Positions 8,411 through 62,410 of a stretch of DNA of 64,000 nt are shown piece by piece. Below the pieces are notes generated by a model that saw only the letters and a list, made by a program, of their open reading frames with translations, was not told the origin of the DNA and did not search any database. The DNA comes from Azolla caroliniana (taxonomy: Eukaryota > Plantae > Polypodiophyta). Where the stretch lies: the NCBI GenBank assembly GCA_043228905.1, contig JBHGNT010000007.1, positions 13,640,001 through 13,704,000 of the forward strand, read 5' to 3'. Each line of letters starts with the position of its first letter. The first letter of the stretch is position 1. A program made the position numbers and the translations under genes.

Positions 8411-9083
8411 GTTGTGAGATACTGAGCACACATTAAAAATAGATAAAAGATTATAGGATAGGGCAAAAGTATGAGAAGATGAAAGGTTAGGGGTTCACGT
8501 CTTGTTTGAACTATGAGAGGCTAATTGAATGTTAACGGGATGAACCCGAAGATCAACATTTGCTCACACCAGGCGTTGGAAAAATCGAAATGGAGTATGC
8601 AAGGTGAAATATTGAAATGCATGCTAAAAAGATAGTTACTATTTTTATTTCAAAGTCGTCTGGCTAGTTGGTCCTCTCAGTCGAAAGTCACAGATATCCC
8701 TAAAGCTCTACCCGTATGTCTGAAATCTCTATTTTCTTTATCTACCTTTCAAGCCACTCCGTGAAATAAAGTTGAGAATTATCTCGCTTGTATCTTAATC
8801 AATCTTCCAATCCTTGATAAATTTTTCCCTTTTGATATTTACACAAAATTAATTTCAGAAAATGTAACAAGGATTGTTATAACAAATTTTGGTTTGTGAT
8901 TTCGAGTTTGAGGTGCAAAGCTACACACGATTTTGGATCACTGCCTAGGGAGACTTGGCACGGCGAAGCAAATATTCTGCCTCTATGGTTGCCATGGAAT
9001 TTCCAGATCTCACTTCCAACCTCTGAGCAAAAACTTACGCGGTAACATGTAAATTTTAGATGGCAAGAGTCGAACCCACTATG

Positions 9084-9930
9084 TGTTACCCATAGGGTTT
9101 ATAGTCGAAGGCCAAAAGGGTCGAAAGCCAAAATAAGAGGCATGCTTCATTGAGAGATATTTTTGGATATACAGTGTCGTTGTTTATATTTGCGTCTTTG
9201 GTGTATTTTGATTTCATATAATAAGTGTTGTGTTGTTAGTAGCCGATTCGGCTATAGTCGATTTGACGATTGACTTACTATTACGGTTCGGTTCATTACT
9301 ATTTTTCGACCACTACCTTTGGTGAAGGATATCTTGTGAGAAGATATCCGACCGTGTTATTGAGGGAGTAACACATTTTGGTGACCACGATTTGTTTTGT
9401 GAGACGCACTGAACAATGGAGAATGGATGTCATCCGGTCAGAGTGACAACAAACGAACTGCACGTGGCAGGAGGTCGCGTTCCTAACGTATTCGGCATGT
9501 AGCCGAATGAGCATTTTAGGGCAGACAACAATAGTGAAAACGAAGGCAACAATAATACGACTCACCTTGTGGCAACGGAAATGACCTTTCGAACACTAGA
9601 GGAGGATTCAACCACTTTCTCAAGCTTGGAGACCCTTAGCTAGCAATCACGGTTCTGACGAAGACATGTCCAACCACCAAACTATTCGTCCAATCAACCG
9701 TCATACGAGTGACACTTTTGACCCATGGGCAGCAGAGGCCCATGCACAATCACCACTAGACAGCCCGTGAGGCGAGGAAGAGGACATATAGTCGTACCCC
9801 TACCTAAAATACAACGATAACCAAACGGCCGAAGCACACATTCGGGAGTTCCTCATGAAATGGCAAGCCAACCATGTCTCACAGAGACTATTTGCGGTTG
9901 ACACTGATCCATCAAAGATTGTCGAAAGGC
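9084..9930 (+). mobile_element. Athila/Tat-like gypsy remnant: 5' LTR (9084-9373), PBS, truncated gag
   Basis: TGTTACCC...GGAGTAACA, then TGGTGACCACGA (tRNA-Arg-type PBS) at 9379. The gag remnant YPYLKYNDNQTAEAHIREF...SKIV is homologous to the gag at about 50000-50090 (PYSKFREGVDAKAHVRDF...SKIV). Confidence 0.7.
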
Positions 9931-12969: not shown

Positions 12970-13340
12970 TGTTACCCGCATAGGTGTATGGGAGGGTTAG
13001 GTATAATGTGGAAGGTGCAATGTGTAATGTGAAATGTGAATATGTGAGTGTTAGGTAGGGTAAGTAGGTGTAACTACCCCCACTCGGCTTTTTGTAATGG
13101 TGAGATCTTGTACTATTTAAACCCCACCCGTCTCTCTCTCATTCTTATTCTCATTCTTTGTGTGCATCTCTTTCTCCTTCTCTCCCTCACATTTAAACCC
13201 CCTTGGGGGGGAACGCCCTACCGCCTACCCCCCTTGAGAGGAAGTTTCTCTCTCTTTCTCCCTCTACTTCTTTGAGTTTCTGTGTCTGTATCTAAGTGTT
13301 GGTGCAGCCGACGAAATGGTGCGTGTTCCATGAGAGGAGC
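12970..13340 (+). mobile_element. LTR of the TGTTACC (Athila/Tat-like) lineage, 3' end decayed
   Basis: Starts TGTTACCCG. Shares ACTATTTAA(A)CCCC and AACCCCCTTGGG motifs with the minus-strand LTR 18566-19029. GTGTTCCATGAGAGGAG resembles the end of LTR 29895-30507. Confidence 0.55.
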
Positions 13341-29894: not shown

Positions 29895-30156
29895 TGTTAC
29901 CCGGTGGGACAAGTGTGAGAGGTGTGAAACGTATGAAAAGGAGCCGACCACTAACAACAGAACAAAGGAAGCCGAATATCAAGGAAGGAACGTGTGGAAA
30001 GCGCCGAGCACAAGGGAGCTATATATATCGGGATTAGCGAACACAGAAGAAGGGGATCTAGAGAACTACGATAGGAATAGATTAATAGAAAGTGAGTGAG
30101 TGTTTATTGAATATACTTGGTACTTGTATCTATACCTGTATGCTACATTTAATCAG

Positions 30157-30187
<31 letters not shown>

Positions 30188-30507
30188 GGGTGACTTCCAT
30201 GTTCTGTTTTCATCTCTGTTCTCGTTATACATATAGATCTATATAGCGTTCAATTTGAGTTAAGGACGTGTATACAAATCATTTGTAGTTGTTTCTGTAA
30301 CGTATCCTTCTTGTTTCCCAATCGTGATCCTACCCCAAGTGGGACAGTCTGAATAACAAACACGGGCCCCAGGAAGTCATACTCCTCGTACGACCTGGTT
30401 AACGATCTCGGTAGGATGTCTTGGCCTCGACTCTCCTTTGCACTACAATACCTTGACCCGATTACTCAAGAGGAGTAAGTGAAGGTGTTCTCCATGAGGG
30501 AGAAACA
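29895..30507 (+). mobile_element. Solo LTR (613 bp), TGTTACC lineage
   Basis: TGTTACCC...AGAAACA with TSD CTAGC/CTGGC; flanking copia sequence rejoins; internal (TA)n at about 30156-30185. Confidence 0.85.
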
Positions 30508-30937: not shown

Positions 30938-33900
30938 TGTTAAGGATTAGGTAATTAATTAAGGAATAATTATTACCTAATTATGTGATTACGTAGCGGA
31001 AGATTAAGTGGTATGTGCGTGTATGTGTGCGTGAGAGGAAGAGAGAGAGAAGTACACTTATGAACACAAAAACAAGATGGGGGATGATAAAGTATATTAA
31101 AAGGTAAATATCATCAACTATCATCAAATACAAAAATACCTTCAATGAGGTATATATAGGTTTCATGTGCAAGTTGAGCTTGATCTCTCAACACACCCCC
31201 TCAAGCTCAAGTGTGAGGCGTCCGACATCTGGCGTTGTTTGACTTTCAATGTCGGCTTCTGTGCGGCTTCCGTCCGGCCTTCGGCTTTGTTCGCCGTGGC
31301 AATCTCGAGTCCTCCCCCTCAAGCCGGCGACGAAGGCTTGTAGCGTGTGGGTGAAGGTCGACTACTTCCACCCATCGTGGGTTACGAGCTGCTTCGGTGG
31401 AGCTCTTGGACTCTTGTTCGGCCGCTACCTTCATTGTGAAGGCATAATGATGGGCCATATACTCGTTGTAGCCGAGCCGCATGATGGGGTTCTTAGCTCT
31501 AGATGAGCGTCGAAGTTTTTCGCTCGCCGATGTGAGCGCCTTCTTTACTCCAGGTGTACGCATGATGGGTACACCGAACTCACTGTCTAGTGAGGGAGCT
31601 GATCCATCCGAATCATTGTCGTCAGGGTGGTTGACTTCATATTCGGGCATCTTACCTTTGCCTTTGTCCAAGTTCGTACTTGGCCGCGACGTGCTTGTAC
31701 ACCTTCTTCTCGGACGAGTATCCTATGAGGATACATTTCTTCAACTTCGCGTCGGGCTTCTGTCGTTGTTTGTTTAGGATGCGTACATTCACAATGCTTT
31801 TGAACACTTTGAGATGCGACAGGATTGGCTTCCTTCCAATGAGGAGCTCGTATGGAGTTAGCTCATGAACTCCATTGGTGGTGCATCGATTCATGAGATA
31901 GACGGCCGTGGATGCCGCTTTGGCCCAATAGAAATTCGGCATGTGCTTCTCATGCATCATGGCGCATGCTACCTCGAGTATTTGCTGATTTTTCCTTTTG
32001 GTGACTCCATTTTGTTGGGGTGTGTGTCGGCATGAGAATTCTCTCCGAATGCCTTCACTTTGGAGGTAGGAGGTGAACTCGTCGGAGAAGTACTCCTTTC
32101 CTCCATCCGATCGTAGGCATCGAATGTGCCGACCGGTTTCTTTTTCGACTTGCCCCTTGAGCTTTTGGAAGTGGGAGAACACTTCGCTCTTCTTCTTCAT
32201 TGGGTAGATCCACGCGTAGCGCGAGTAGTCGTCGACGAAGGTTACGTAGTATCGGCATCCGCCGATTGTCGGCGTTTGAGCAGGTCCCCATACATCCGAG
32301 TGTATGATGTCGAGGAGGCCTTTGCTTGCGGAGCTCTCCTTCGGGAATGGGAGTCGATGTTGTTTGCCGAGTTGACATGCTTCGCATATTCGGTCGACTC
32401 GAATGTCGGAAGTTCGATGACGACTCCCTTTGTTTGCATAGCTTGGAGCCGTTGGAGGTTGATGTGGCCGATTCTTTTGTGCCAGAACTCGATGTTCATC
32501 TCGTTTTTGAGACCTTTAGCGTACATTGCCGATTTCCCCTCATTCGAATCGAGGATAAACATTCAGCCTTCTCTCCACCCCTTAGCTACGACTCAACCAT
32601 CTTTCTCGATGAAGCATCCTTCTTTGGTGAAGCGGACTTGCATGCCTTGCTCCACGATTTGGCCGACCGAGACCAAATTCTTTGTTATTGTGGGCACGTG
32701 CAAGACATTCTTGATGCAAGTTTGCTCGCCTTCTTTCCCGAATGGGACATTGCCGATGTGCCAAATGGGATGCGTGGTGTTGTCTCCCGTCTCTATAAAG
32801 CCGGGTCGATCCAGCGCTCGTAAATCGCGAAACCACTCTTTGAGGGATGTCATGTGATGTGATGCGCTGGAATCTATGAACCACACGTCTTTCGGATTGG
32901 AGATGCTTGCGGAGTCGGAGGCCGTCATAGAGTTCGCTCTATGCCGCATTACGAATAGTCCGCCGTAATCCTCGTATTCGGAGTTGTTGGCGTAGTTTGT
33001 GAGTTGTCGGCTTGTCGATGCCGACTCGCTTCTTTTCTTTCAACACTCCGCCTCATAGTGGCCGATTTTGCCGCAATAATTGCAAGTTGCGGGCCTCGTT
33101 TGCCAACCTTGTTCGGCTTGGAAGCTCCCCCTTCTTTCGAAGATTCCTCGATGGCTTCCTCTTCTACCGCCACGACCTCTTCCATGACCACCATCCGAAT
33201 TCGAGAAGAACATTTGTCCTTCCGGTGCCTTGCTTTTGGTTCAGACGTGGTTTTCTTCGACCAATAACATCGATTGGAGGTCGAAGAACGAAGGAGGGTT
33301 TTCTCCCGCCAAGATTGCCGTCCGTAGTGGATCAAATCGTTGTGCGAGGCCACCCAAGCATACTTGAACCATCTCGTCTTTGTCGACGTTTATGTTGATG
33401 GAGCCAAGAGAGTCACAAATGCTATTGATTTTGGCGGTGTAGTCTGACACAAACATGTCTTTTTGCCGAATGTTATTTAACTCTTGCCGGAGTTGAAGTT
33501 TGCAGGCGGTCGTGTTGGCGGCAGACATTTTCTTTAAGTTCTCCCACGCCTCTTTAGGCGTCTTGGTGTCTCGAATGTGGCTAAGCATATGGTCGTGGAC
33601 ACATGTTGCCAAGCAATACATTACCCGAATTGCTCCTTGCTCCCACGTTGGGTAGTTGGCATTTGTGTTGTTGGGCTTGTTCTCGAGTGCGCCATTGATG
33701 TAGCTCCAATACCCTTGGCCGACGAGGTATTGGGTCATCTTGTACTCCCAAGATGAATAATTGCTCCAGTCTAGCTTTTCGCTAGGGAGCGAGCTACCCA
33801 TTTGTGTATTCATGTTGTTTTGTGTCTTCCTTTTTGGCTCTTCTTTCTTCGATCATGTACTTGTGCTACGTAGCAGCACTATGGTAGCTGATAACTGGAT

Positions 33901-34425
33901 TTTGTCGTCGGCGTCTCGAACACACAATCACGGAGTCGGGTGGGCTGAGTGGATTTTCTAAACCACACGCTCTGATACCATGTTAAGGATTAGGTAATTA
34001 ATTAAGGAATAATTATTACCTAATTATGTGATTACGTAGCGGAAGATTAGGTGATATGTGCGTGTATGTGTGCATGAGAGGAAGAGAGAGAGAAGTACAC
34101 TTATGAACACAAAAACAAGATGGGGGATGATAAAGTATATTAAAAGGCAAATATCATCAACTATCATCAAATACAAAAATACCTTCAATGAGGTATATAT
34201 AGGTTTCATGTGCAAGGGTGCACATGTGCTAGGAGAATATAGGTACAACGTGTAAGTCCTATATTAAATGAGCACGGAGTGGTGGATCTACAATGCATCC
34301 CAGTCGAGTACAAAATCCTATTTAAGGCTTTACGGTCAACACACTAACTAGATTCTATCTAGGTAACTACTAAGTTACATGTGTTGACTAACTAACTCAA
34401 CTAAGTTGAGCTTGATCTCTCAACA
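30938..34425 (-). mobile_element. Two-LTR Ty1/copia element lacking RT/RNase H
   Basis: Perfect TSD CTTCT (30933-30937, 34426-34430); 5' LTR 33981-34425; PBS TGGTATCAGAGC; gag-PR-INT; PPT TGAGGGGGTG; 3' LTR 30938-31193. Confidence 0.95.
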
Positions 34426-36502: not shown

Positions 36503-39500
36503 TGTAAAAGAATACCTGTGGAAGCTAAACAAATACAACTGGGTAACAACAGACGAAGACAAAGAAGATGAGGAAGGTTTAATGGAAAGCTTAATCATCA
36601 CAACGTACGTGGGAGAGATAAAGAGAGTAGAACATAGAAAACTCAATTCCAAAACAATACTCTAAATCTCTGTACATAGGATGTGCTTAGAGAGCACTTT
36701 TATACAAGTCCATACAGACTGACAGAAGTACTGACATGTACTACAATGCTCATCAATGAGCCTCTACACTAACTCCCAAAATATATTCCTCTGTGGAATA
36801 TCTGTCAAACGGCCTCCTGGTTTACGCACCGCTACGACCTCTCGTTGCCCACCCGATTTACGCACCTAGTCTAGGCATTGGTTTACATACCCAATGTTGA
36901 GCTCGTATCTCAACACTCCCCCTCAAGCTCAACTTGAGGTTCTGCCTGCTCTTCCGAATCTTTGCTCCAGCTTCTCCTGGCTTCATGCCTTGCTCACGCT
37001 CCTCGGCCCGTTAGATTCCGTGCGCCTCAACCCTTTCAGTCAGCTTGTCTGCTCATGCGGCCTTTCTCAGCTCCTTTGCTATCATGGTGTTGGTGCCTCT
37101 TCTGTTTCTCTTTCCTCCGCTTGGCCTTCAATTGATTTGGCATCTCCGAATCGAACATTCGAACCGAATCGGCTGTCTCCGATTCGTTTCCACTCTGGCC
37201 TGAAATGGTTGTCTCCAATTCGTCTTCTGTCTTCAGGCCCTTAACCACATCAGACCAAGTCTTGGTCTTGGCCTTCTTGGCTTCAACTCCCCCTTGTTCG
37301 GCTGACTCCAACTCTTCCCTTTGGTTGATGCCCTTGTTTCCACCTTCGGCTTCTTTAGCCGACCCGAAATTGAATTCTTCATCCGACTCAGCTTCGTTGT
37401 CACTTCCGCTCCTTTCCCACTCCCTTTCATGGTCTTTTCTCCCCCCCAAGTTCGGCACGTCGAGGTGCCACAAACCAAGCACACCCAAGAATACTAGTTG
37501 GTCCACGTCCACCTTGCCGGATGAACAATGAAGAGTCCGATTTGGATGTCGCAAACCCCATCCAACGCAGGCGTTGCTTGATCTTCGTGTTCCACGTGCG
37601 CGGGGCTTGTTTTAGTCTGTAGAGGGACTTCTTTAGTCCGCATACCGCGGAGGTGTTCTTTCCGGACTGAAATTCGGGGGGTTGTACCATGTACACCTAT
37701 TCCTCAAGTTCTCCTTGCAGGAATGCATTCTTTACATCCATCTTCAAATGTAAATGCCACCCCTTTACCACGGCTATTGGAAGCAGGACGCAAACGGTTG
37801 TAATCTTCGCGACAGGTGCAAAGGTCTCATCATAGTCGATGCCATGTTGTTGTGCGTAACACTACGCCACTAAACGGGCCTTGTAGTGGTTGATAGAGTC
37901 GTCAGTGTTGTACTTGACCTTGTACACCCACCTGCATCCAATTGGCTTTACACCCTTTGGAGCGTCAACTAGGTTCCATGTTTCATTTTCCACTAATGCG
38001 TGCATCTCTTCCTCCATTGCAACACGCCAAGTTGTGTCCTTCACCGCTTCTACATATATCTCCGGCTCACGCACTTTCTCCACTCGCGTCATGTACGCAG
38101 AATGATGCGCCATGTACTCGTTGTATCCGAACCGCACTACGGGGTTCTTTTGGTAGGTAGATCGACATAATTGCTCATTAGCAAATTTTGAGGCCCTCTT
38201 GGCCGATGCGGACTTCATTTCTGAAGGTTTGTCTTCATTATTCTCTGAGTCAGATTCACTTAGATCTGACTCGTCTTTATCAGTGCCGTACTCCGACATC
38301 TTTGTCTTTCCCTTCTCCTTGCGCATAAGCCGTCTCCTCGACTTCTGGCGTGGGGATTGCACGACTGAGTCTCCACTACTTGCTGGCTCTACGTATGACT
38401 GGTCATGCCGACTCAGTCGCTCATTCAACCCACTTAGCCTGAATGAGATCAGACTCTCTTAAGGAGCTTTGATTTCTCCTTCGTCTCGAGGCATTTTAGC
38501 ATCGTTGACCTCTTCATCAGAGTGTTGTCCGCCGGAATAGTAACCGATGGACAAGAGCGCAGTAATATGGAATAGAGTAATATTGTAAAGCATGTAAACG
38601 GTTTACGCGGGAAGCGTGAACGGCTAAAAGACCCTGCGTATATAAAGGGCAGAAAACCTCTGATAGAGGTAGCGTGTAATTTTGAATGTAAAAGGCGTAT
38701 CTTAATAGAGTTCTATCTTCTCTGATATCTGTCCGTATCTGTGGTTAATCTACGGTGTGTCTGTAATCCTTGATGGCATAGCATAGTCGTAAGAGCGTAG
38801 GCGTGATTAACAGTGTGTGTGTTAGCCCACTGTCTAAGGAGCTCGGTTGTAGCCGTCTCCCTTATACGCTGCTAGGTTACGGGAGGTATCCTACTAAGTA
38901 TTACGCACAGATGTTACCATTCGTTGTCACACTATCACTTTAAGGTCCAGGTCGAAGGATTGACCATAGACCGTGTTCCTAATCGGTAACATAGAGATTG
39001 AAATGGAGTAGTTTGGGGCGTCCAACTTCTTCCGTTTCTCCTTCGGCACATGCAAATACGCGATGCTATCGAAAACCCTCAAGTGTGCCAAGTTCGGCTT
39101 CTTCTTGAAGTACAACTCATGTGGCGACACTCCTCCATTGGTAGATGCCCGATTTTGGAGGTAGATGGCTGTTCTGATCGCTTCGGCCCAATAGAACTTC
39201 GGCAAATGCTTCTCTTCAAGCATTGCCCTTGCCGCCTCCTCTATCATCCGATTCTTCCTCTCGGCCACGCTGTTCTGCTGCGGCGTGTATCTACACGAGA
39301 ATTCGTGTCAAATTCCCTCCTTCTGTAGATAACTCAAGAACTGGTCAGAGAAGTACTTCTTCCCGCCATCAGACCTTAGGCAGTTGATCTTTCACCCAAT
39401 TTCCCTTTCCGCCTGGCTCTTCACTTTCAGGAAACACGCGAAGACTTCGCTCTTTTTCGCGTTCAAGTACGCCCAAGTGTGCCGAGTGAAGTCATCGATG

Positions 39501-40704: not shown

Positions 40705-41231
40705 TGTTGTTCGGTCGACAATAACTATTGTCGACATAGTATAGGATGAACGTTGCTCACCAAATGTTCTATCAATGAATTGTGGTTTAGACGAATAGAT
40801 ACTAAAATGGTTGTAAACTTATCGATGTTCAGTAGGCATCGAGATTGCTATTTACGTAATAAGTTATAACAGAAAGGAAATAGATTGACAATGTGTTTCA
40901 TACACAGAGATTTCCTAAACTAACTTTATATTACTAAATAAAATGATGTCTCTTTACACTGCCTTCGGTTCCTTTTATAGGCAACCAGAAGGACTTCCTC
41001 ATCAAGAAAACATATTGCCAAACATGGCAAGAACTACAAAATCTTTAACTAACCTATAATTTCAATTTTACTTCGGCCATATGCTAACTCATCAATCCTC
41101 TATACCGATCCGAATCTGACTCCGACTCCGAACCTTCTTCATTTCCGATTCCAACACTTCCCCACTTGTCCAGGTAACACTTGGCACGTCCGTGGGCCAG
41201 GGCTTTGTCCGACGAACTCCATGGTATCCTT

Positions 41232-44200
41232 CTATTCCTGTTGTTCCCAAGGAAGGTCCTCATCTAATTCATCCTCTACGTCATCTTGCAGAATATCGAA
41301 CAATGAAGGTCCGGGTTGCTGCATGTCTTCTTTGTCTTTGTCTTCGGATTCTTTAAACGTGTTTGTATTTGTGGTCGACGGTCTTGGTTTCTCTGTTGCT
41401 GGCGCTTCAAGTGTTGGGGTCTGATCTCACCTTTCGGATTGAAGGTTATCTAGCTGGACAGCTATGTTGACATCATGTTTGTCGAATTCTTGCATAATTT
41501 GACTAACTTCCTCTCGGTGACACGCTGCTATTGTTGGGAAACAGGTCCCTCCGGATGGGAAGGGAGAAGAACAGTGCCGACGAACAAACTTGGCCGAGGC
41601 CGACAGGCCTCGGTATGAACCGGATGAGGAGTACCCGGCTACGGAGAGCCGGATGGTGCAAGCCCGGTATGAACCGGATGAGGAGTACTCGGCTACGGAG
41701 AGCCGGATGGTGCAGGCCTGGTATGAACCAGATGGGGAGTACCCGGCTACGGAGATCCGGATGGTGCAGGCTCGGTATGAACCGGATGAGGAGTACCCGG
41801 CTACGGAGAGCCGGATGGTGCAGGCCCGGTATGAACCGGATGAGGAATACCCGGCTACGGAGAGCCGGATGGTGCAGGCCCGGTATGAACCGGAGGAAGA
41901 GACATATTTGTAAATATGTTTCTGAGAGCCCATCGAGGCTATATTTGTAAATAGCCGAAAAGTCATATTAGTATAAATATGACTTAGGGCAAACTTTTAA
42001 GTATGATTATTCTTCCTTGTTGGTGCAAGAAGAAGAGTGAGAGCACATAATAGTGTACAGAGAGAGTGAGAGAGAGAAAGAGGTCATTGCCTCTGTTGTA
42101 ACCGCCGCCTGTGGCGAAGATCGTGAGACCGAGGTTGTTGCCTCCGTGTACTCACTGTTTTGTACATTCATACATAGTGACAGTTTGCAGCCTGTGGGCT
42201 GCCGTGGTTTTTCCCCTAGTTTGGGGTTTTCCACGTTAACCTCTTGTGTACCATTTCTCCTCTGTGTCGTGTTCTATTTCCTGTTTTTTTTGTGTATGAA
42301 AAGAATCTCGGTTGTGGCCGAGTCTTGCGCATAAGGAACGACAAGTTCCCGTCAGCTATCTCATCTATTTCATCCTCTACGTCATCCTGCAGAATATCGA
42401 ACAATGAAGGTCCAGGTTGCTGCATGTCTTCTTCGTCTTCGTCTTCGGATTTTGTAAACGAGTTTGTATCTGCGGTTGACGATCTTGGTTTCTCTGTTGC
42501 TAGCGCTTCAAGTTTTGGGGTCTGATCTCGCCTTTCGGATTCAAGGTTATCTAGCTGGTCAACTGTGTCGACATCATGTTTGTCGAATTCTTGCATAATT
42601 TGACTAAATTCCTCTTGGTGACACGCTGCTATCTCATACAAGTCTTTAGCAATATCCTCCTGAACGGTTGATATTGCTTCTTCTGTCATTTTGAAGAAAC
42701 CTTGGCCGTGAGACTTCCTATTGTATCTGTCAGCCTGTCACAACTGAAGTTCGACTACTTGTGCTGACCAGGTTTTCCAGGCCTTATCAATGGACTCATT
42801 CACCATTTTCAAGGTGTTAAGTTTATGGCGTCTTAGGATATCTTGAATTCTTTCCTCGGTTATACTTGCCTGAAACTGTGTTGCGGCCAATGTTCTTTGT
42901 AAATCATCAATTTGAGCATTATTTTCTACTTCTGTCTGCAACAACTTGTTTTGCGCGAGTAATAGGTCAAGTCGCCTTTTTTCCGACACAGCTTCCACTT
43001 CTGAACACCGTCTTTCCAGAGTTGCCCTAGCTGATTCCCATTCTTCCTGCTGTTTATTATATTTTTCGTTGATTTTGTTCAGCAAGGTGTCCTTTCCGAC
43101 CATCTCTTCTGCAAAATATTCTATTTGTACATTTACATACTCTTCAAGCTCCTCCACTTGTTCAGTCAGTGTTTTGGCGCGTGGCTTCTTGTTGCTGTGC
43201 TAACTTTCGGCGCAGTTGTTGAATTAATTCGTCCTTTGCATCAAGCAATTTTCCGATTTTCGTCTTTGCCAATTGTATCCTATCCTCCAGTTTCTTGGAT
43301 CGGATTTCGGCTTTTTCGGCTCTGGCTTCCGCCGCCTTGAATGCTGCTTCTACCTATTGTAGCTTTTGTTGCCATTCTTGATCAGCCTCTAATGGTCTGT
43401 TGGATTCCTTCTGCAACAGTTCTTCCCTTGTTTCTGTAGTTGTTCTTCAGCTTGTTGGAGTTGTTCCGTCAACTGCAGGTTTTCGGCTTTCATGTTTGTA
43501 CATTGTGTGTTTAGTACTTCCGATGCCGCTGATGATTTTTTGTATAAATCAGCCATATCTTTGGTTGCTCAGCTGGCCTTTTCATATTTTCGATGTACTT
43601 CCACCAGGGCCTCATGTAATGGTAGCATCTGGATAGCTTCGCCTTTATTTCTCGCACAATGCTGTCTGCCGATTCGATCCAATTCTTGTTGTTCTTCCAG
43701 GTTGACAACTCCACTCAATGACTTTTGGATCATTATCTGATCCTGGTGTTACTGTGCCATTCTCTCCGATACCTCCTATAATCTTTGTGCTAACCATTCT
43801 ACTAGCTCGTATGATGTGCCAAATTGTAGAATAGCTGCTAGTTCATGTGCTGCTAGAGGAATGTCGGCAAAGCCTACTAATGCTTCTCGCACTGTTGTTA
43901 TTGACGATTGCCCTTTTTGAACTTTGATCGTGTCATTAGGATTGACACGAGGTATTTGTGCACTCTGTGCAGCTTGATCATCGCGTCTTTGTTTCTTCTA
44001 TGCAGGTTCCTCCTGCTGAGGCTGAAAAAATCGTTGGGATTTTTGTTTCATCCTTCTTGGTTGTTGTGTCGACTGCTCAGCTCCAACCACTGTTGATTTT
44101 TGTTGTGCTTTTGACTGCAGTGGTGTAGTATTCCTAGGGTCTGATTGTTGTCCACATTCTAACTGCGTGGTCGGTTGTTTTTGAGGTTGTGGTGAGGCCG

Positions 44201-44850
44201 GTTGCTGTTCAGGTTCTGATTGAGTGGTGTCGATATGCGTTGAGTCTTCTTCCTGCCACTCTTCTCGTTGCACTTGTCTTCGGGGTCGGGGTGCTTGTGG
44301 CCGTGGCGGCCTTTGTTCTGGCGGTTGGCTTTCCGATCTTTGAGACGGAAACAATACTGACAACCATCGAGCAAATATCGGTTTTATGGGTATCCCTTGC
44401 TGCACCCCATACAGTTGCTCTCGTAGAGCGTCTGCTGACAACAACACCCAATCAAAAATTCACCCTCATATGTGGCGATTATGAATCCAGCCCGCTTCTT
44501 GGGCATACAATAAAACCTGGGATTGACCAACCCTACTTCCAACAAAAATTTTGCAACTTCATGAAAAAATTCATCTACGCCGCCTTGCGTTTGAAAAGCC
44601 TTCACAGAGGGAGAATATTCCCCAAAATGAGACCTGAGCACATCCTTGTCCATTTTCTAGACAACATCCAAACCTTCTCTTTTTATTCCAAAACAGAACG
44701 TACCTTTTTATTGGTGATTTTGGATACGTCGATTTGCTGCAGAATTTCTGTAGCATGAGGGTGTGGTTCTGCCTCTACAACTTTGATGAACCCTTGCAAA
44801 TTTTTGTTGGCGAGCCACTGTCGCATGTTGTCAGAAACATAAATCGCCAT
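41232..44850 (-). pseudogene. Disrupted extra ORF (about 930 codons) downstream of pol: globular N-terminus, Q/P-rich linker, coiled coil, acidic repeated tail
   Basis: ORF pieces 44683-45024, 44384-44653, 43998-44447, 43511-43714, 42738-43157 and 42216-42689 are collinear and in the same sense as pol. The start MAIYVSDNM at 44850 is assumed. Confidence 0.7.
41532..42354 (+). mobile_element. Solo copia LTR with 54-bp tandem array (41611-41895)
   Basis: TGTTGGGAAAC...CCCGTCA with perfect TSD GCTAT; homologous to LTR 61421-62182. Confidence 0.93.
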
Positions 44851-47800
44851 ATTCTCTTCGTCGACTGATGATTCGAAGTTCTGTGTTGGAGATAAATCAG
44901 AGCAGAGTTTTAGGTTAGAGCGAGAGAGAGCAGAAGCAGAAAATCTTTCAACACGTATACGCTTCTCTTTCTGTGGTGAAACAGACTTTGCAGAACTAGG
45001 TTTTAAGGAAATAGCGCATTGCATGATGCCTAGGGAATAGAAAAAATACTATTAATGAAAAAGTTAAGAATAGCAATAATGAGTGTGAGTTGCATGTCTC
45101 CACTAGTCCTTTACTTATAGTCTGTCAAACTAAGTCTTTTCCAAGATTTTCCTTTTGACAGTTAGTTGTTTTGGCCAAGATTTTCTATAGTTAGTTAGTT
45201 GTTTTTGTGTGTGTGTGTAACGTATGCCACCTTACTTTGCATTAATTTCGAGTTGAAATGGGTTTCCCGGCATTGGCCCGTGATACGGTTTAAGCTGGAA
45301 ACCATTTACCCATTTTGGTAAAATGTCGCTTGATAATGTACCCACTTGATACGTCCCATTCTTGCTATTGACAATCCACACTAGTCCTGTCCACCGAAAT
45401 CGTAATTTTCCCGACATTGCCCCATCTTAGTTTGGAATACTAGTACCGGTTTGCCAATTTCGAGATGTATTTCATTCTGACGTCTGTAACGATTTACAAA
45501 TGCCTTTGTTTGTCTTTGCTTGTGTTCCAAAGCTGACATGGCCTGTATTGTTTCTTCCTCGAATAGTAATAAGGCTTCTTTCCGAATTTGTTCCGACTGC
45601 ACTTTATTTAATTTTTCAGTTGCTTGTATTCGGAGTGTCGGAATTTGAAATTCTATTGGCATTACGACTTCTAATCCGAAAGCCATTTGGAAAGGAGTTG
45701 ATTTAATAGATGTCTTATAAGACGTCTGATATGCCCATAAAGCACTGTGAAGCTTTTGATCCCAATCTCTACGATTTTCATTGACTATCTTTTTTAGTGT
45801 TGTCTACAACGTTTTATTTGTCGATTCTGCTAATCCATTTGCTTGTGGATAGTGAGGAGTGCTCTTTTTATGAACCACCACGTAATATGTGGATAACTCA
45901 TGTACAATTTTATTAATAAAATGTATACCTTGATCGCTTACTAATTCTATCGGACACCCAAATCGACACCATATATTTTCATACAAATTTTTTGATGTTG
46001 ATGCTGCCGTATTGTCCTTGAGAGGTTTAGCTTCTACCCACTTTGTATAGTAATCTGTGACCGACAAAATACAATCCCCATTTTGAAATGGTTCCAATGC
46101 AAAACAAGTTGGAAAGGCATTCTGTCCTTTTCTGTGGGTTGCCCCAGTCTTTGACATAAATCACATTTTCGACAATAGTCCACTGCATCTTTCATTACTA
46201 TCGGCCACCATAGGCCACTGTTCCATATTTTTCGGGCTGTAGTTTCTTCGGCATAATGACCACTTGCAATACCACAATGAGATTCTCGCAGAATTATCGA
46301 TTTCTCAAATTTTCATTCTGTCCTTCTCCAAATTCCGTCTGCACCTTTATGATAGAGAGTATCATTCAAAAAACAGAAATTCTGACTACGAACAACTAAC
46401 CTTTTCCTTTCATCCGCCGATAGACGCTCGGGTGGTAACCCTGTCGTAAGAAAGATTGTCATCTCAGAGATCCAAGCATCCTTGCCTTCCTCATTTATTT
46501 CTTGTACCCATACTACTTCCACTCGTAAGAGTTGGCCATCTGGAAAATCATCTGGCACACCTATACCTTCTTCTCCCGACCCTAGTCGGCTAAGATAATC
46601 AGCAATCGCATGCTGTGCTCCTGGCCGATGTAAAATGTCAAACTCGAATTCTTGCAGTAATAATGTCCATCGTGCTAGCTTACCGGTTAATTCTTGTTTA
46701 GAGACCAAATAGAGAAGACCAGAATGATGGACATGGAATGTAAATTTCTTGCCCAAAAGGTAGTGGCGAAATTTATTGATACTATAAATCATTCCTAACG
46801 CTTCCCTCTCGGTTGTTTTCTTGCTGTCGAGAGTTTCCGACTAGCGTAATACACTAGTCTATACCAGTTTGGTTCGGATAACTGCATGAGTGCACTGCTG
46901 ATTGCTATATTAGATACATCAACGAACACATGGAAGGATTTATTCCAGTCAGGTGGTTGAACCACGGGAACTTTAGATAGCATTTTCTTGAGACACTCAT
47001 ACGCGTCCTGTTCTACACTTGTCCATTGAAAAAGAACTATATGCATCGCTGTGTGTAGAGGAATGGCCACATCCGCAAGATATCTAATCATCCTGCTATG
47101 CCATCTAATCTGCCCCAAGAACCGACTAAGGCCCTTAGCGTTTGTAGGTGGTGGTGCTTCTAATATGGTCCTGACCTGATCTGGGTCAACTGCAATTCCT
47201 TCTTGGCCGACAATATGGCCTAATAGTGTCCCACTAGTAACTCTGAACGCGCATTTTGCGGGATTCAAACTGAGCCGACCTTTTTGACATTGCTCCAAAC
47301 ATATTTGTAAATGTTCGAAATGTTCCACTTTTCGACTATACACGGCAAAATAATCTAGGAAAACTTGCATAAATGCGGGAATGTATTCCGCAAAGATTTC
47401 CTATATAACCCTTTGAAATGTGGCCGGAGCTGTTTTTAATCCGAACATCATTACTACTGCTACAAATACTCCCCATTCAATAACGAAGGTTGTCTTCTCT
47501 TGATCCTCCGGATGCATCCTTACTTGATTATATCCACTAAATCCATCCAGGAAACTATACATTTCATGACCAGCGACTACATCTAAAATCCCATCCGTAA
47601 ACGATAATGGAAATGCGTCCGTTACTGTTGCTACATTTAGTTTCTGATAGTCGACACATACTCGAATTTTTCCATTCTTTTTCGGAACAACTACAATCGG
47701 ACTTAGCCATGTAGCTTTTTTTACCAGTCGAATAAACGCTACTTTCAGGAGTTTATCTATTTCCTCTTTAACTTTAATTGCATGATTAGGATTTAAACGA

Positions 47801-50800
47801 TACCTACATTGTTGAACCGGTTTCGCATCTTTCTATAAGTTAATTTGGTGTTGACAGAAAGCCAAATCTAGCCCTTTCATGTCTTCAAAAGACCACGCAA
47901 AAACATTTTTATATTGCTTTAGTAAGCCAAGTAACCTTTGTTTATCCGCGACGCTCATATCTTTAGCCACCAACACTGTTTTTGGTTCACACTCATCATC
48001 TTCTGCCAAATTTACTTCCTCCAATGCCGAAGCTTGAACCCGTTGAGATACCTTCATTTCTCTTTCGGTAGCTTCTTGCGGCATTCGGATTTCCTTCATT
48101 GTTTGCTCATCTAATGGTAATTCCTCTTGTGCATCCATGTACGATGTCAGGGTTTGTAATATGTCTACTTCGAACAAAGGGATAGTTTTTGGGTTATCAT
48201 TAAAATAATGATTTTCTTCGACCTCATCTAGTCCTTCCATCATATTTACGGCCTCCACATGAATTGGCAAACATTGTTTGCTCGTCGTAATCTTATTCTG
48301 AGTAGACACCCTGATTTTCGTCTTGCCTTTTTGGAATGTTAATAAATTCTGATTCCAGTTTTGCTTAATATTAGCAGTTTTTAACCATGGTCTACCTAAT
48401 AGCAAAGGATATGCTCCAGGGGCTTCCAAATGAAGCACCACTGCTGATATTTGAAAAGTGTGACCTCTTAATACGACATTCAGCTGCCGCAGCAACCTGA
48501 TTGGTTGTACCGTACTAGTATTAGCCATCCTTAGCCAAAATGGGCATGCTTCCCATTTGGTAATGCCAAGCTTATCACAAGTAGTTCTATTAATTACATT
48601 CACGCTTGAGCCACCATCGACAATAGCACCTTCTATTTCGTGCACATGGATTATTACTTTAATAGAAGGATTTTGCTCATCCATAATTGAACGATTATTA
48701 CTCGACTGATTATAGTGAATGTCTACTTGTTCCGTCCCTTTTTGGGCAATTAACGTCACCACTTTCTCTGTGAACCTAGGAACTAATTTGAGTAACCTTG
48801 TCAAAGGTAATGATACTTGGCAATCCGCCAAGATTTTCCAAGTTTCTTCTTGTTTTGGTACGGCCATAACTCCAGGCAATTCATTAGCTTGATTAATCTC
48901 ATTTTCTTGAAGCACTCAAGACACATTGTTTTTATTTGCTTCTTCTACCCATTCCTTGGCTGCTTTCCGAACAACTTCCTGAATTTCCCACTCTGATTGT
49001 TTACTTTTACTTTTGGTGGTCACTTGCTGAATTTCCGGCATGACCATATGCACAGCCGGTGTTTTTCCTTTTCCTTTAGATGGACATTGATTTGCATAAT
49101 GGCCCTCCTGCATAATGTTCCACTCTCTTCGCCTCGCGCAAACTGATGATTTCCATCTTCATTAGAGTCTGAGGTTTGTTGAAATTGTCGTGACGCTTTT
49201 TGCTTATAGAATTTTTTATTCTTATAGAGATTTTGTTTAAACTGTCCTCCATTGTTTTGTTGATAGTCGTTATCTTGTGCCGCCGAAAAATCTTGATTCT
49301 GTTGATAATTATTTTGTCGAGCGGTTTCTTGGTACCCATTATTGAATATTTGTCGGTTATTCTCGTACCCATTTTCCGGAAAAAATTACCATACCGGTGT
49401 CGTTGTTTTGTTAAGAAGATTATATTCACATTGCTCGACCGAATGAAGTTTAGAATGATATATTGTGCAATGTGTTCGCAAACTACATTCTATTGCCGAA
49501 TGCCCAGTATTCAAACAAGTCGTACATTGAATTGCTTGCCGAAACTGCAACTCCTCCCGAGTTGGCGACGTATGATGTAATGCCGACATATCCATACTCT
49601 TTATATTTTTCGGATTCCGGCCCATAGTGATTGCTTTATCAATCACTTGCTTGATCGTCTGATTCCGGAAATCGAACACTACCAATGTTCGCAATGGTTC
49701 ACGAATTGCATCAAGGAATACATCCTTCAATTCATTGTTCGGAATAGGCCTGGAAATTTGGAGTTGTCAATTCTGAAAACGGATGACAAATTGAGACACC
49801 GTTTCATGTGGCTCTTGATACAACGCATAAAATTGCGCTATCAGATCCTTTTGAGGAATCTGACGATGAAATAATTGGAGAAATTTGGTATTTAACTGTT
49901 CAAATGTTTTGAACGCACAGAAACCATTTTGCGCAAACCAATTAGCGGACTGACCATCTAATGACAAAACAAACTTAACAATTTTAGATTTATCTTCGGC
50001 TATTGCACTGTTGTTGTCAAGAAATCCCTAACATGCGCTTTTGCATCAACACCTTCCCGAAATTTAGAATACGGGTAAGGCATATTGTCTTCACTCTAGA
50101 TATCGTAAAATGCTATCTCCTCCTCCTGATTCTCGTCTGACTAACAATCAGTTAAATCAGGGAGCGCAGACCACCTTCTACTTGTTTCTGGGTGTAACTC
50201 TACAACTGAATCTTTTTCTAGTATCTTCGTAATCGGACGTGTACGAGGACGTTTACAGTTGATTGGTGTATCTGGACCAGAAGACATCAATTCAACTTGT
50301 TCTCTGCTAGCTACAGATGTAACTGGGTGTGCCAAAATTATACTGTGTTGTTTGGTCCACAATAACTATTGTCGACACAGTATAGGACGAACGTTGCTCA
50401 CCAAATGTTCTATCAATGAATTGTGGTTTAGACGAATAGATACTACACTGGTTGTAAACTTATCAATGTTCAGTAGGCATCGAGATCGCTATTTACGTAA
50501 TAAGTTATAATAGAAAGGAAATAGATTGACAGAGCGTTTTGTACATAGAGATTTCCTAAACTAACTTTATATTACTAAATAAAACGATGTCTATTTACAC
50601 TGCCTTCGGTTCCTTTTATAGGCAACCAGAAGGACTTCCTCATCAAGAAAACATATTGCCAAACATGGCAAGAACTACAAAATCTTTCACTAACTTATAA
50701 TTTCAATTTTACTTCGGCCATATACTGACTCATCAAAACATGATCTGCTCGATTGAAACTTGAAGGCCCCTGCGGGTGAATTTCGGAAGAGGGGGAATGA

Positions 50801-51948
50801 AGAAATCTATGGAAGATGTTGACGGACTCATGTGGATGCGATGCACAATGCTGCAACGACCAGAATAAGAGTCAGGAAAGACAAAAATGAAGCTGCGAAA
50901 GGGGGAGCAAAATTTTGGTCTTCCGTTCTCGAGTATGAGAAGATGGGGAAGGTCACATCGAATGAGGTAGAGCTTGCGGACCGAAGCGTGCGAAGCATAA
51001 CCGGGTCGTCGGATCTGGTGGATGACAACACCATACTCGCGGAAGTGATGTGCGACAACCACGAGGTGTTCGTCAAAGAAAAGAGAAAAAGAATAGAAGA
51101 ACAAGACCCATCAAAAAGACATGAAACAAGGAACGCAAAAAAGAAAGAAGATGCCGAAACAAGTCGAAGAAACGGTTCGGCCCGTGAAGATTGGTGTTGA
51201 AGACCCCACTCGAAAGACAAGGACTATGCCTACTTATAAGCTAAGGTCGGACATAGAGCAGATGACAGACCTGAAGAAGATTCTCGAGGAATGCGTTCTT
51301 GATAGCCAGGTGACTTTGTCCTTAAGGGTACTACTCAGCATTACGAAGGAGTTCCACGACACGATCGTGGACCTTGTAAAGAGAAAAAGGCAACAATCAG
51401 ATGAAGAAGAAGAGAAGCCACTAAAAGCGAAAGCAAATGCCATAACGATGGTAAGAGACGAAGTTGATGAAGAAATGGTGGACAACTACTATACTCGATC
51501 TCATTTGGCACGAGCAACAACAGAAACGCCTGTGAAGATCGGGGATAAGAAAGAGACCGTGGTAGCCTTGACCGACCACGGCTCGAAGATCAACCTCATG
51601 TCAACTGACTTCTACAAAAAAGGAAGATGGCCAATAAATACAAATCACGGATGGAAGATTCGCGCAGCATCCAGCGACGGCGGAGGACTTGTACGGAGCT
51701 TGTCCCAATGTTAAAGTTGCAATCGAGGATGTGGAGATGGATCAACACTTCTTCGTGCAAGAATTGGTGTCGCATCCTATCATCCTAGGACAACCGTATA
51801 TCACATCATCTCGGATGGAAACCAAAGTGTTCGACAATGGTGCGGCATTTGCTCAAATAAAGAGTCTTTACAACAAAAGATCTGTTCAATTCCTAATGGT
51901 GCAAGCTAATCATGAAAGAAATCGAGATAGTCTTGGAGGCGAATCCTC

Positions 51949-56611: not shown

Positions 56612-59447
56612 CGATACCGGTTAAGAACATGGCCTACCCTTAGTCCTTTAGGGTAGGTATCAAGGTGATCATGGTGCAAGGGGGTAGGGATACACATAAC
56701 CCGCTGGACGTAGTGACTTATATTGTTAGAACGTATTATCTAAGGGACTGAACGGGAGACGGCTTCAACCGAGCTCCTCATGTGCGTAACTATGCACCAC
56801 GTACTTACCTTATATGCTTACGCTTATGCAGTCACATAGAGATAACAAGGAATAGACAAGAGATACAATATCAGGGAGACAGAACTCTATTAATGACTAT
56901 GCTCAAAAAGGCGCTAGCTATTACACTATTCTTTTGCCCTTTATATACACAGGGCTTAGTCAGTTATGCTTCCTATGTGAACCATTGCACGTGTTACTTA
57001 CCGCTCCTAGTATAATAATACATTTCTTTCCCATGCATTATTTACATTTTTCCACCTCTAACACACAACACTTGGCAGGCCTATGGGACAGTGTCGTGGC
57101 ATGTCAGACCCACCCTCTTCTTAGTCATCATCCATAATGTCAAGAGTGTTCGACTTCGATCGCGCGTTATTGTCCGTTGGCATGACTTGAGTGAGGTTGA
57201 TGATATTCTCCTCTGTCGGTGCATTGTTTTCCGCATGGTCCTCTTCTCGCGGCGTCTCCGTGGTGGGCTCAGCTGGTACTCCGTCTGTGGGCGGGGAAAA
57301 GTCGTTTCATGGCGGCTCTATCGTTGGGCGTGGACAGATATTTGGGTGTGACTCTTCCGGGCCTGTTTCCTACGTGGGGGCCTCCGGCGTTGCGTTTACG
57401 AATTCTCGTTATGCAGTGGCTCTGTCGTTGGGCATGACTCTTTCGGGCATGTTTCCTGCGTGGGGGCCTCCGGCATGGCTGTTACCTACGGAGCATCATT
57501 AGGATCAGTTGGAGGCTCATTTTTCTCCGTAGAGTCATTGTCCTGTACGGTAATAGCCTCCACCCTTTTCAATTCCTCCGCCTTTTGATGCTCGCTTTTG
57601 ATCGCGCACAGCTAGTGGAAGATATCTTCCTGACTTTCGTTGAAATCTTCCAGCAATTGTGTTATCTCCTTTGCGTGTCGGTCGGCTAACGTGTGATAGT
57701 CCTGCGTTAGGTCTTCTCGTACCACGACGATGCTCTCTTCATTTAGCTTATAGAACCCTTTACCTTCTTTGCGTTGATTTTCCTAGTCCGCTCGGTAGGT
57801 GTGGAGTTTGGCCACTTGTTTTGCCCATCCGGCCCAGCCTTTGTCCAAGGCTGCTTGTAGCTGCGCCGTAAACCGTTCCTACTTTGTTTGGAGGTGTATG
57901 CGGATCCGGTCCGTCCGTATTTGGGAGCGGGCTTGTGACTCCTCCAAAGCCTTCTTTGAAGAGAATACCACGCGTAATATCAGTCGGCCACAACCGAGTC
58001 TTAGATCACTTCTTTGAGAATCAAACATAGAAATGGGGTTGGAGATTAGTACACGTACACACACAAACAATGGAGAGTACATAGGTTATTGTTGATGACG
58101 AGGTCGTAGACGAGGAGTGCGGAAATGGTGGATCATCGACGGGCGGAGGAGATATCGGAGAAGAGGAACACCAAGGTCAATTGAGCGCACCCGGATCGAT
58201 ATAGTGCTTGGTGTATATGAAGAGATAGGAGTAGGTATTAAGAAGAGGGCCAAGGGTAGGGGATTAACATACTAATTGAAAAATGAAAGAGAGGGAGAAA
58301 GGGGAAGGGGGGTGGCGGCTAAACATAAAAACTAATAAATTAAACCGTAAATAAATAAATAAATTAAAACATAACCCCAAGTGTAGCACAAGGTAAAGGG
58401 CGGGGTAGGAGGGATTAACCTATTAATTAAAAATAAAGTGAAAGAGAGAGAGAGAGAGAGATAGATTAAAACATAATAAACCTAAGATTAAAGATTAAAA
58501 ACGAGATTAAAACATAATAAACCTAAGATTAAAGATAAAAAACAAGATTAAAAACCTAATTAAAGTTTAAAAAGTGGGTTAAGGCGGAGGGAGGGGATTA
58601 ACATAAAAACTAATAAAATGATTAAACCGTAAATAATAATAAAATATAACCCTAAGTGTAACACAAGGTAATGGGAGGGGTAGAAGAGATTAACCTATTA
58701 GTTAAAAATAAATTGAAAGAGAGCGAGAGGGAGAGAAATTAAAACATAATAACCCTAAGATTAAAGATTAAAAACGAGATTAAAACATAATAAACCTAAG
58801 ATTAAAGATAAAAAACGAGATTAAAAACCTACTTAAAGTTTAAAAAGTGGGGTAAAGGGGGGGGAGGGAATTAACATACTACTTAAAATGAAAGAGAGAG
58901 GTACCATTTATAACTAAAAAACGAGATTAAAACATAATTAAAAGGGGGAGGGAGAGATAAAACAAAAGTAAAAACATAATTAGAAAAGGAGGAGAGAGAG
59001 AGAGAGATAAAACATGTAATTATCATTAGGGAAAATTACATTGGGTTTTTGGTGGGTGGGGGGGTGCATGGTCTTACGTAACCGGCAAACTAGTTTCGCC
59101 CCGAAGGGCTCATCAATGCCATAAGACCATGAGGGTGAGGGAGGGGATTTATATAGGATTTTAGGAGAGGGGTAGAGCGAGGGTGTGGGTTCCAAATAGG
59201 GAGTGGGGGGTAGGGGTGTGCTATGTGTATATGTGCACATTAAGGGATGGTAGTGGGGTGTAAGGTTTTTAAAGATAGGGAAAAGGGAATGGTGAGAGGG
59301 TGTAAGGGAGAAAAAAAAGGTAAGAGAGAGGGTAAAGGATGTGCACATGTGCACATGTGTATGTTGAGGAAGGAGAGGGTAATGGTAAGGGTGCTAAAAT
59401 ATAGGGAAAAAGGGAAGGTAACGTGGGCAAAAGTGTAGGGTCAAAAA

Positions 59448-61420: not shown

Positions 61421-62410
61421 TGTTAGGAAACAGGTCCCTCCAGATGGGAAGTGAGAAGACCCAGTGAGAACCGGATGTGGAGTACCCGGCAATGGAAGAC
61501 CCAATGAGAACCGGATGTGGAGTACCCGGCAACGGAAGACCCGGTGAGAACCAGATATGGAGTACCCGACAACGGAAGACCCGGTGAGAACCGGATGTGG
61601 AGTACCCGGCAACGGAAGACCCGGTGAGAACCGGATGTGGAGTACCCGGAAAGGAAGACCCGGTGAGAATCGGATGACGAGTGCCCGGCAAGAGCCGGAT
61701 GGTGATGCAGGCCCGGTGAGGAGTGCTCACCGGCTGAAGGGACATATTCGTAAATATGTTTTTGAGAGTCCATTGGGGCTATATTTGTAAATAGCCGAAA
61801 AGTCAGATTAGTATAAATATGACTTAGGGCAAACTTAGTCAGTAGTAGTTGTCATTCTTGTTGGTGCAAGATTTGAGTGCAATCGTGTACAGAGAGAGAG
61901 AGTGAGAGACGAAGAGAACGTTGTCTCTGTTGTAATCGCCGCCTATGGCGAAGATAGTGAACAAGAGGTCGTTGCCTCTGTGTTCATCTATTGTATATTG
62001 TAACATAGTGATGTTTGCAGTCTGTGGACTGCCGTGGTTTTTCCCGTGTTTGGGTTTTCCACGTAAACATCTTGTGTACTCTTCTCTTTACTGTGTCATG
62101 CGTACATTACCCATTTTTCTGTGTTTGATCCTAGACTCGGTTGTGGCCGAGCGTTGTTTTTCGGGAGCGTGTAGTCCTATCAAAGTGGTATCAGAGCGAA
62201 ATGACACAAAAAATGGACGAATCGTTGGGAGGCATGTTCAAGCTCATCGGCTCCAATTACTCAGTGTGGAAGTCGAAGATGAGGGACATGCTCGTGGTTA
62301 AAGATCTTTTGTTGTCGGTTCAGTTCGGAGACAGTAGACCGGACAAAATCGATGCCACGATATGGGAGGTGATGCACATGAAGACAACGGCATACATACA
62401 GTGCTTCATT
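61421..62410 (+). mobile_element. Copia 5' LTR (61421-62182, 40-bp array), tRNA-Met PBS and gag start, truncated
   Basis: TGTTAGGAAAC...CCTATCA, TGGTATCAGAGC at 62186, MDESLGGMFKLIGSNYSVWKSKMRDML. Confidence 0.92.

Follow-up and report, generated by a model that had tools for sequence, protein, structure and literature searches.

To our knowledge, LTR retrotransposons and retroviruses are regarded as almost always priming the plus strand from a polypurine tract (PPT). Sequence related to tRNA near the 3′ end has reportedly been found in Cer7 of C. elegans, which is said to encode its own tRNA-like primer, and in Drosophila micropia, which is said to carry a second PBS, in both cases without replacing the PPT. 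PMC6317226 describes a PPT before the 3′ LTR as usual in ‘most’ LTR elements. The bipartite PBS of Ty1 and Ty3 (PMC5371799) and the second, 3′ PBS of Drosophila Gypsy (PMC1635307) bind tRNA through its acceptor stem and T-arm, and in Ty1 a small internal loop lies between the two PBS segments (PMC5371799). In these two sources each such site is found on the sense RNA as a complement of the tRNA and works in minus-strand priming or in bridging, and the elements keep a PPT. The self-priming Tf1/sushi elements take their primer from their own RNA, but this concerns the minus strand of chromoviruses, whose PPT is retained (bioRxiv 2022.12.06.519325). Another case of LTR elements with tRNA-derived sequence is that of the Helenus TRIMs (Kojima 2024, PMC10886601), in which it lies inside the LTR as a Pol III promoter beside a kept PBS and PPT and had no priming role according to that paper.

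The locus described here lies in the window, the whole 64,000-nt stretch of Azolla caroliniana DNA that was analysed, and belongs to a minus-strand element of the Ty3/gypsy type (Table 1). Unlike the Ty1, Ty3 and Gypsy sites, its 3′ site reads on the sense RNA as the tRNA itself and not as its complement, which occurs only on minus-strand DNA, at the place of the PPT. In contrast to Helenus, the tRNA-like block is external to the LTR, has a CCA end and takes the place of the PPT, and the Helenus combination of a non-autonomous element, a tRNA-derived promoter in the LTR and a kept PPT was not found. Read from the sequence, the replacement of the PPT by a tRNA-3′-end block is a conserved feature of a plant Ty3/gypsy clade. 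Searches of open full-text papers returned no account of an element in which a copy of a tRNA end stands in for the PPT.

Table 1. Coordinates of the elements discussed, in positions of the window.
Feature	Coordinates	Strand	Basis and remarks
5′ LTR (9084–9373) and PBS of related family	9084..9390	+	LTR end and PBS type as L006
Solo LTR inside copia element	29895..30507	+	TSD CTAGC/CTGGC (4/5); about first 20 nt like the 41179 LTR
Solo LTR related to the 57070 LTR	38523..38991	+	TSD CAGAG/TAGAG (4/5); starts TGTTGT
3′ LTR, 475 nt, TGTTACC...AACAACA	40705..41179	-	Sequence; start by contig loose ends
2-nt spacer AG between CCA and TG of LTR	41180..41181	-	Sequence; no variant of at least 3% in three runs
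tRNA-3′-end-like block, 41 nt, in place of PPT	41182..41222	-	Sequence, contigs, window-wide scoring
Sense extra ORF, coiled-coil-like, 3.8 kb, broken by stops and frameshifts	41232..45024	-	Stop 9 nt before block
Later insertion in extra ORF	41532..42359		273-bp flanking direct repeat; 54-bp tandem array inside
gag-PR-RT-RH-INT, broken	45232..50287	-	Translation, Pfam; no additional RNase H, no chromodomain
5′ PBS TGGCACACCCAGT	50322..50334	-	12/13 nt to canonical plant PBS (L027/L030/L081); 11 nt after LTR end
5′ LTR remnant, first ~80 nt missing	50346..50736	-	21 mismatches in 391 aligned bases vs 3′ LTR
3′ LTR of second element, end approximate and decayed	56612..57070	-	Alignment to solo LTR
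Second copy of 41-nt block, diverged related element	57073..57113	-	Followed by AG, TGTTGTG; window-wide scoring
Extra-ORF remnant of second element	57121..57956	-	Stop 7 nt before block

The + strand reads AACA up to 41179, CT at 41180–41181 and TGGCACGTCCGTGGGCC at 41182–41198; both this junction and the PBS start at 50334 are as an earlier note on this DNA had described them. Because its 5′ LTR is truncated, the window element cannot by itself fix where the LTR starts. Public contigs from runs X1, X7, X11 and X12 were aligned to reference 41125–41244 and their loose ends tallied, and these place the start of the 3′ LTR at 41179, the position that the note had proposed. Behind 41179, loose ends were found in 11 contigs of run X7 (organism B; median 107 nt, agreement 0.44) and 10 contigs of run X11 (organism C; median 237 nt, agreement 0.43), with no row for this position among the 6 listed for run X1. 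Such low agreement indicates unrelated flanks, the pattern given by 5′ and solo LTRs. With the LTR starting at 41179, no purine tract precedes it: the 15 nt before the LTR hold 9 purines without a G-run in the window element and 8 in L006, a related element on a metagenome contig, as compared with 10–14 and G-runs in five controls. The PPT usual before the 3′ LTR of Ty3/gypsy elements is thus missing from the window element, as the note had stated.

The note had dismissed as weak the purine tract that precedes 41157, but GGACAAGTGGGGAAG contains four G and 12 of the 15 preceding bases are purines, which makes a serious rival of an ordinary element whose LTR begins at 41157 and whose likeness to tRNA is due to chance. 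A start there would also give TGTTG/CAACA as a 5-bp terminal repeat, and the absence of loose ends at 41157 rests on the 18 rows listed of 125. The flank-like loose ends sit at 41179, however, and both L006 and the second element of the window, with its LTR at 57070, carry the block and TGTT with no purine tract at an equal distance. In addition, the solo LTRs whose TSDs match at 4 of 5 positions (29895–30507 and 38523–38991) begin at the matching TGTT, and the end-to-end alignment of the 57070 LTR with the solo LTR starting TGTTGT fixes the LTR start of that family. An ordinary element starting at 41157 is by these observations already largely refuted, and we give it only the slightest chance. 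The related LTR starts that the note had cited in its favour are of unequal worth: the one at 9084 is related through gag, LTR end and PBS, that at 29895 shares about 20 nt, and that at 12970 has no link beyond TGTTACCC. A start at 41157 and an unconserved junction, either of which the note had named as fatal to its reading, were both looked for and neither was found; its interpretation as a whole is borne out in part.

In the sense strand the block consists of the 5′ strand of a T-arm and the start of its loop (41222–41213; GTGGG followed by a TTCG-like loop start), a 13-nt insert (~41211–41199) and a 17-nt tail (41198–41182) whose CCA end lies two bases before the TG of the LTR. It resembles the T-arm and acceptor 3′ strand of a tRNA, minus one base and interrupted by the insert. 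An extra A at 41218 in the window is absent from most contigs (loose ends behind 41217 and a deletion row). The note had recognized a tRNA 3′ end here, an identity borne out by window-wide scoring and by tRNA matches in viral contigs, but took the motif to be 17 nt long, overlooking the upstream T-arm block, and the copy at 57073–57113 is absent from it. When every one of the 127,918 41-mers in the window was scored for its match to the last 28 nt (3′) of a tRNA-Arg(tct) called by ARAGORN, the top two were 57113(-) at 33.9 and 41222(-) at 31.0, with the third at 26.6; both are followed by AG and TGTT, letters outside the score. The insert-free block pattern had 19 matches in viral contigs, each with one base more than the element, and 16 of the 19 are 3′ ends of ARAGORN-called tRNAs for Lys, Leu, Ile, Arg and Asn, so the motif alone cannot fix the amino acid. 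The 17-nt tail agrees at 15, 15 and 16 of 18 positions with the complement of the 18-nt plant PBS in the Tat/Ogre-type loci L027, L030 and L081, a PBS that we take to be of the tRNA-Arg(UCU) type, and from this resemblance the partner of the block is probably tRNA-Arg. In standard numbering the tail presumably covers tRNA nt 59–76 minus one base and is thus as long as a PBS; the block upstream of it would cover nt 49–57 or 58, which would place the 13-nt insert at the modified A58 (m1A58). In REXdb, 89% of Ogre elements are assigned tRNA-Arg (PMC6317226, Additional file 5).

Other searches returned little. ARAGORN called no tRNA in the window or in 45 retrieved loci, Rfam gave a single match that was taken as chance, and the junction pattern had no match in metagenome contigs. 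In viral contigs one further pattern had 4 matches, with no tRNA called in them, and another had none; two pattern matches in prokaryote genomes were treated as chance. A G-box or promoter reading was dropped, since the block extends into the T-arm and keeps a fixed distance from the LTR. Elsewhere in the window, back-to-back TGTTACC words enclose a 36-nt spacer (9048–9083) whose minus strand holds a stretch nearly identical to the upstream T-arm block of L006, with TGCCA 13 nt before the second TGTTACC; the spacer may be a fragment derived from a tRNA, or what a deletion has left of the block.

Conservation of the junction, which the note's reading requires, holds across subfamilies in the form ...GCYA-NN-TGTT. 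L006 shows the order extra-ORF end, block, two bases, TGTT, LTR ending GTAACA, PBS and gag, its putative LTR start being taken from homology. Its RT-RH is 77% identical to that of the window element, and its block agrees at 30 of 41 bases ungapped, as compared with at most 21 at the other 12,079 L006 positions. A CCA-type end lies 2 nt before TG in 3/3 junctions (41222, 57113 and L006), all three block copies are without one base relative to tRNA, and the three LTRs (41179, 57070 and L006) have no blastn match to one another. The extra-ORF remnant at 57121–57956 is 29% identical to the extra ORF of the first element over 124 aa (E 8e-19). The L006 block ends in CTA, not CCA, and the 57113 tail carries a transversion, both of which mismatch a tRNA, and the upstream block at 57113 departs from the T-loop at 2 of 5 bases; these two copies may be decayed. 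The 9084 family is tied to L006 by gag (45% identical, E 3e-10) and by LTR end and PBS (27 of 30 positions).

Contig depth in run X1 reached 19,900 over 41172–41197, with 3,393 over 41120–41145 in U3 and 1,019 over 41224–41249 upstream. A peak at the junction was present in 4/4 runs, and in 3/4 with reference 41125–41244, on which no X12 contig aligned. This peak indicates that many subfamilies share just this core, and in the contigs with loose ends before 41173 it is preceded by different U3 sequences on the LTR side. Within 41180–41198, variants of at least 3% comprised three CpG positions (1–9%) and 41189, where C made up 54, 91 and 49% of depth in three runs, with no indel, a low variation that is partly due to recent copies or amplification and to the 80% filter. 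Among the 80 related loci, which come from 8 of 64 parts of the collection, the block was found in L006 alone; L005 stops inside the integrase region, L007 continues for ~100 bases past pol before it ends and the other close relatives are shorter. Ordinary PPTs occur in L017 (43%) and in the Athila/Tat-like loci checked, so the feature is confined, as far as shown, to the 10-row clade described below.

The two LTRs of the window element are in direct orientation with TG...CA ends, and 395 nt of the 5′ LTR match the 475-nt 3′ LTR at 94%. Position 50736, which the note had given as the 5′ LTR start, is wrong, since the LTR is cut there; the outer flanks are unrelated elements, and this copy is therefore without a TSD. 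Related solo LTRs have 5-bp TSDs matching at 4 of 5 positions. The cut edge of the 5′ LTR adjoins gag-like sequence (50737–51100) that belongs to a gypsy element on the + strand; the join has no TSD and marks a deletion or rearrangement after insertion. The PBS, termed normal in the note, has 12 of 13 nt of the canonical plant PBS, but it is not a full match and stands off the LTR end. In this clade the 5′ PBSs are short, ~11–13 nt (window 50322–50345; 9374–9390; L006 918–936), and lie 5, 7 and 11 nt past the LTR end, in every case preceded by CA and a spacer rich in T; at its right end the cDNA may have over two additional bases. The extra ORF had no convincing Pfam match in the pieces scanned and no homologue among the longer proteins searched, which is weak evidence. 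A pyrimidine-rich run ending in TAG at ~45025–45075 (minus strand), right before the ATG of this ORF, resembles a splice acceptor from which a subgenomic RNA would be made. The 828-bp insertion at 41532–42359 starts TGTTGG on the + strand, matches 61421–62151 at 72% and is flanked by direct repeats (41259–41531 and 42360–42632, 92%) whose length well exceeds that of a TSD; it may have arisen by an aberrant, one-ended integration. The U3 of the solo LTR at 29895 opens (29899–29910) with CCCGGTGGGAC, which resembles the distal half of an Arg-type PBS (complementary to the tRNA on the sense strand), and a word similar to CCCGGTGGGAC recurs at ~30335–30347, reminiscent of a Ty3 U3 half-site. At 30938–34216 a young copia (236-bp LTRs, 98% identical) is nested in an older copia.

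The paired LTRs, PR-RT-RH-INT order and tRNA-type PBS after the 5′ LTR mark the element as Ty3/gypsy. An intact Gag-Pol relative, P0001, is 86% identical; the closest proteins are metagenome sequences (86–74%), and the named matches are from Riccia, Marchantia and Adiantum (mostly 44–48%) and pine (41–43%). For P0002, no relative was found in viral contigs. A quick tree of 51 rows (37 of 120 listed proteins, 13 of 80 loci and the window) that contains no REXdb references places the window and L006 on opposite sides of the first split in a 10-row clade (SH-aLRT 99), so that the common ancestor of the clade probably already had the block. Athila-like loci form another clade (99) with conifer and angiosperm rows, and L041, L058 and L071, Tat/Ogre-like by their PBS and PPT, are a separate branch. 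By this placement the RT belongs to an unnamed non-chromovirus clade near non-seed-plant sequences, apart from the Athila-like and Tat/Ogre-like rows. In two Athila-like loci (L015 6100–6700 and L017 8100–8700) the frame runs past integrase into an apparent second aspartic-protease motif (DTGA).

With the REXdb non-chromoviruses (Athila, Tat/Ogre/Retand, Phygy and Selgy; Neumann et al. 2019, PMC6317226) the element shares the order PR-RT-RH-INT and the lack of a chromodomain, and with the OTA superclade of the same source an extra ORF after pol. It also shares the PBS type of the Ogre/Tat loci, and solo LTRs here have a 5-bp TSD. In contrast to Tat, no additional RNase H was found in the translation or by Pfam in the window element or P0001, and in contrast to Athila the PBS is not of the tRNA-Asp/Asn type, differing from TGGCGCCGTTGCC. 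Phygy and Selgy (PMC6317226) have no extra ORF, a 4-bp TSD and a tRNA-Trp or tRNA-Ala PBS, whereas the element here has an extra ORF and an Arg-type PBS, and its related solo LTRs a 5-bp TSD. It differs from the plant non-chromovirus lineages in having its own 10-row RT clade and in the absence of a PPT.

The position of the block, its fixed two-base spacing from the LTR and the missing PPT make it quite probably a plus-strand priming site, whatever the primer. That the primer would be a host tRNA, probably tRNA-Arg, annealing to minus-strand cDNA and priming the plus strand two bases before TG is a proposal for which we see nearly even chances. RNase H would clear the template and expose the complement of the block on minus-strand DNA. 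tRNA nt 59–76 would then pair with the 17-nt site with one tRNA base bulged, as must be the case given one base missing in the block and no indel variant in reads, and nt 49–57 would pair with the upstream block while the 13-nt insert looped out at about A58. The result would be a split PBS like that of Ty1, yet on DNA, on which plus-strand synthesis would begin at the CCA of the tRNA, leaving two extra bases, as is usual, for integrase to trim. This proposal is favored by the retention of tRNA identity in three very diverged subfamilies and by its independence of the element's own PBS: the L006 motif keeps that identity despite a different 5′ PBS, which points to a partner in trans. The 41189 variant still pairs with the tRNA (G-C or G.T), and the split itself resembles the Ty1 bipartite PBS. 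With RNA:RNA parameters and a viral-contig tRNA as stand-ins for the DNA hybrid and the host tRNA, the pairing energy between the 3′ end of tRNA-Arg(tct) and the minus strands is -37.0 and -42.8 kcal/mol (shuffle means -22.5 and -20.2; best of 300 -32.1 and -32.8). Counting against a host tRNA are the fixed one-base gap and the tRNA mismatches of the L006 CTA and the 57113 transversion; moreover, a tRNA on DNA is a substrate of RNase H, and a second tRNA would need delivery. In its fullest form, a high-copy clade would have dropped the PPT and would prime both strands by tRNA through a split site present only on minus-strand cDNA, with some subfamilies using different tRNAs for the two strands, a proposal that we hold tentatively, at somewhat less than even chances.

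The block could instead, in the main rival reading, be the primer itself, a tRNA mimic in the element's own RNA that is spared by RNase H, cut after CCA and extended as a PPT would be; a primer made from the element's own RNA has a parallel in Tf1/sushi. Its tRNA look would then serve recognition by RT/RNase H and not pairing with a tRNA. We consider this unlikely, though well worth keeping in view, because the one-base gap, the mismatches of L006 and 57113 that keep the fold-back and the RNase H sensitivity of a tRNA on DNA all speak for it. The position and the 2-nt spacing are the same, no second tRNA is required, and the missing base and the insert are tolerated. The non-CpG departures in L006 and 57113 and the 41189 variant keep or improve a fold-back of the upstream block on the tail in the sense strand, which pairs 9/10 bases in L006 and 10/10 in 57113 in sense RNA and is poor on the minus strand. 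Yet no copy folds better than its shuffles (z 0.25, -1.29 and -0.61), L006 favors another hairpin (-12.7 vs -6.0), and the fold-back would pull the tail off the DNA to be primed. A self-templated primer need not keep 15–16 of 18 tRNA-end bases, and pyrimidine-rich RNA:DNA hybrids are normally degraded. A wobble-pair test of strand was mixed, the inner stem leaning to the minus strand and the fold-back to the sense strand, and three block sequences are too few for a covariation test. A stable hairpin as the explanation was rejected, as no fold beat shuffles on either strand.

Explanations that leave priming elsewhere fare worse. Conservation over 41 nt, beyond what a primer needs, would suit a signal with a structural, packaging or regulatory role, or a decoy that draws a tRNA-binding factor, the plus strand then starting from an overlapping atypical, non-purine RNA fragment. 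By the B-box consensus the insert breaks the B-box-like T-loop, making a Pol III promoter role unlikely. Precedent for poorly conserved PPTs with conserved bases just upstream exists (bioRxiv 2022.12.06.519325), but a CCA exactly 2 nt before TG in 3/3 junctions is left unexplained by a signal or decoy, which we judge improbable. Pairing of the tail with the element's own 5′ PBS to circularize the RNA had been the alternative offered by the note; such pairing might also gate primer loading. The two sites of the window element do pair (-14.7 kcal/mol), and 5′–3′ bridging is described for Ty3 and Gypsy (PMC5371799, PMC1635307). This alternative is weakened by L006, which retains the motif with a different PBS and pairs weakly (-8.0 kcal/mol), and by the 41189 variant, ~half of depth in two runs, which is an A.C mismatch with the PBS; it also leaves the missing PPT unexplained, and its probability is lower still.

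An immediate consequence of the junction is for annotation, as tools that require a PPT miss such elements or misplace the LTR start by 22 bases. With its intact Gag-Pol relatives (P0001), the clade would give a direct test system, in which a short substrate separates priming by a host tRNA from priming by the element's own RNA. If both strands are indeed primed by tRNA, this would be a third way to start plus-strand synthesis among LTR retroelements. A natural clade of this kind, abundant in at least three organisms, would show how far the primer rules of RT and RNase H can shift.
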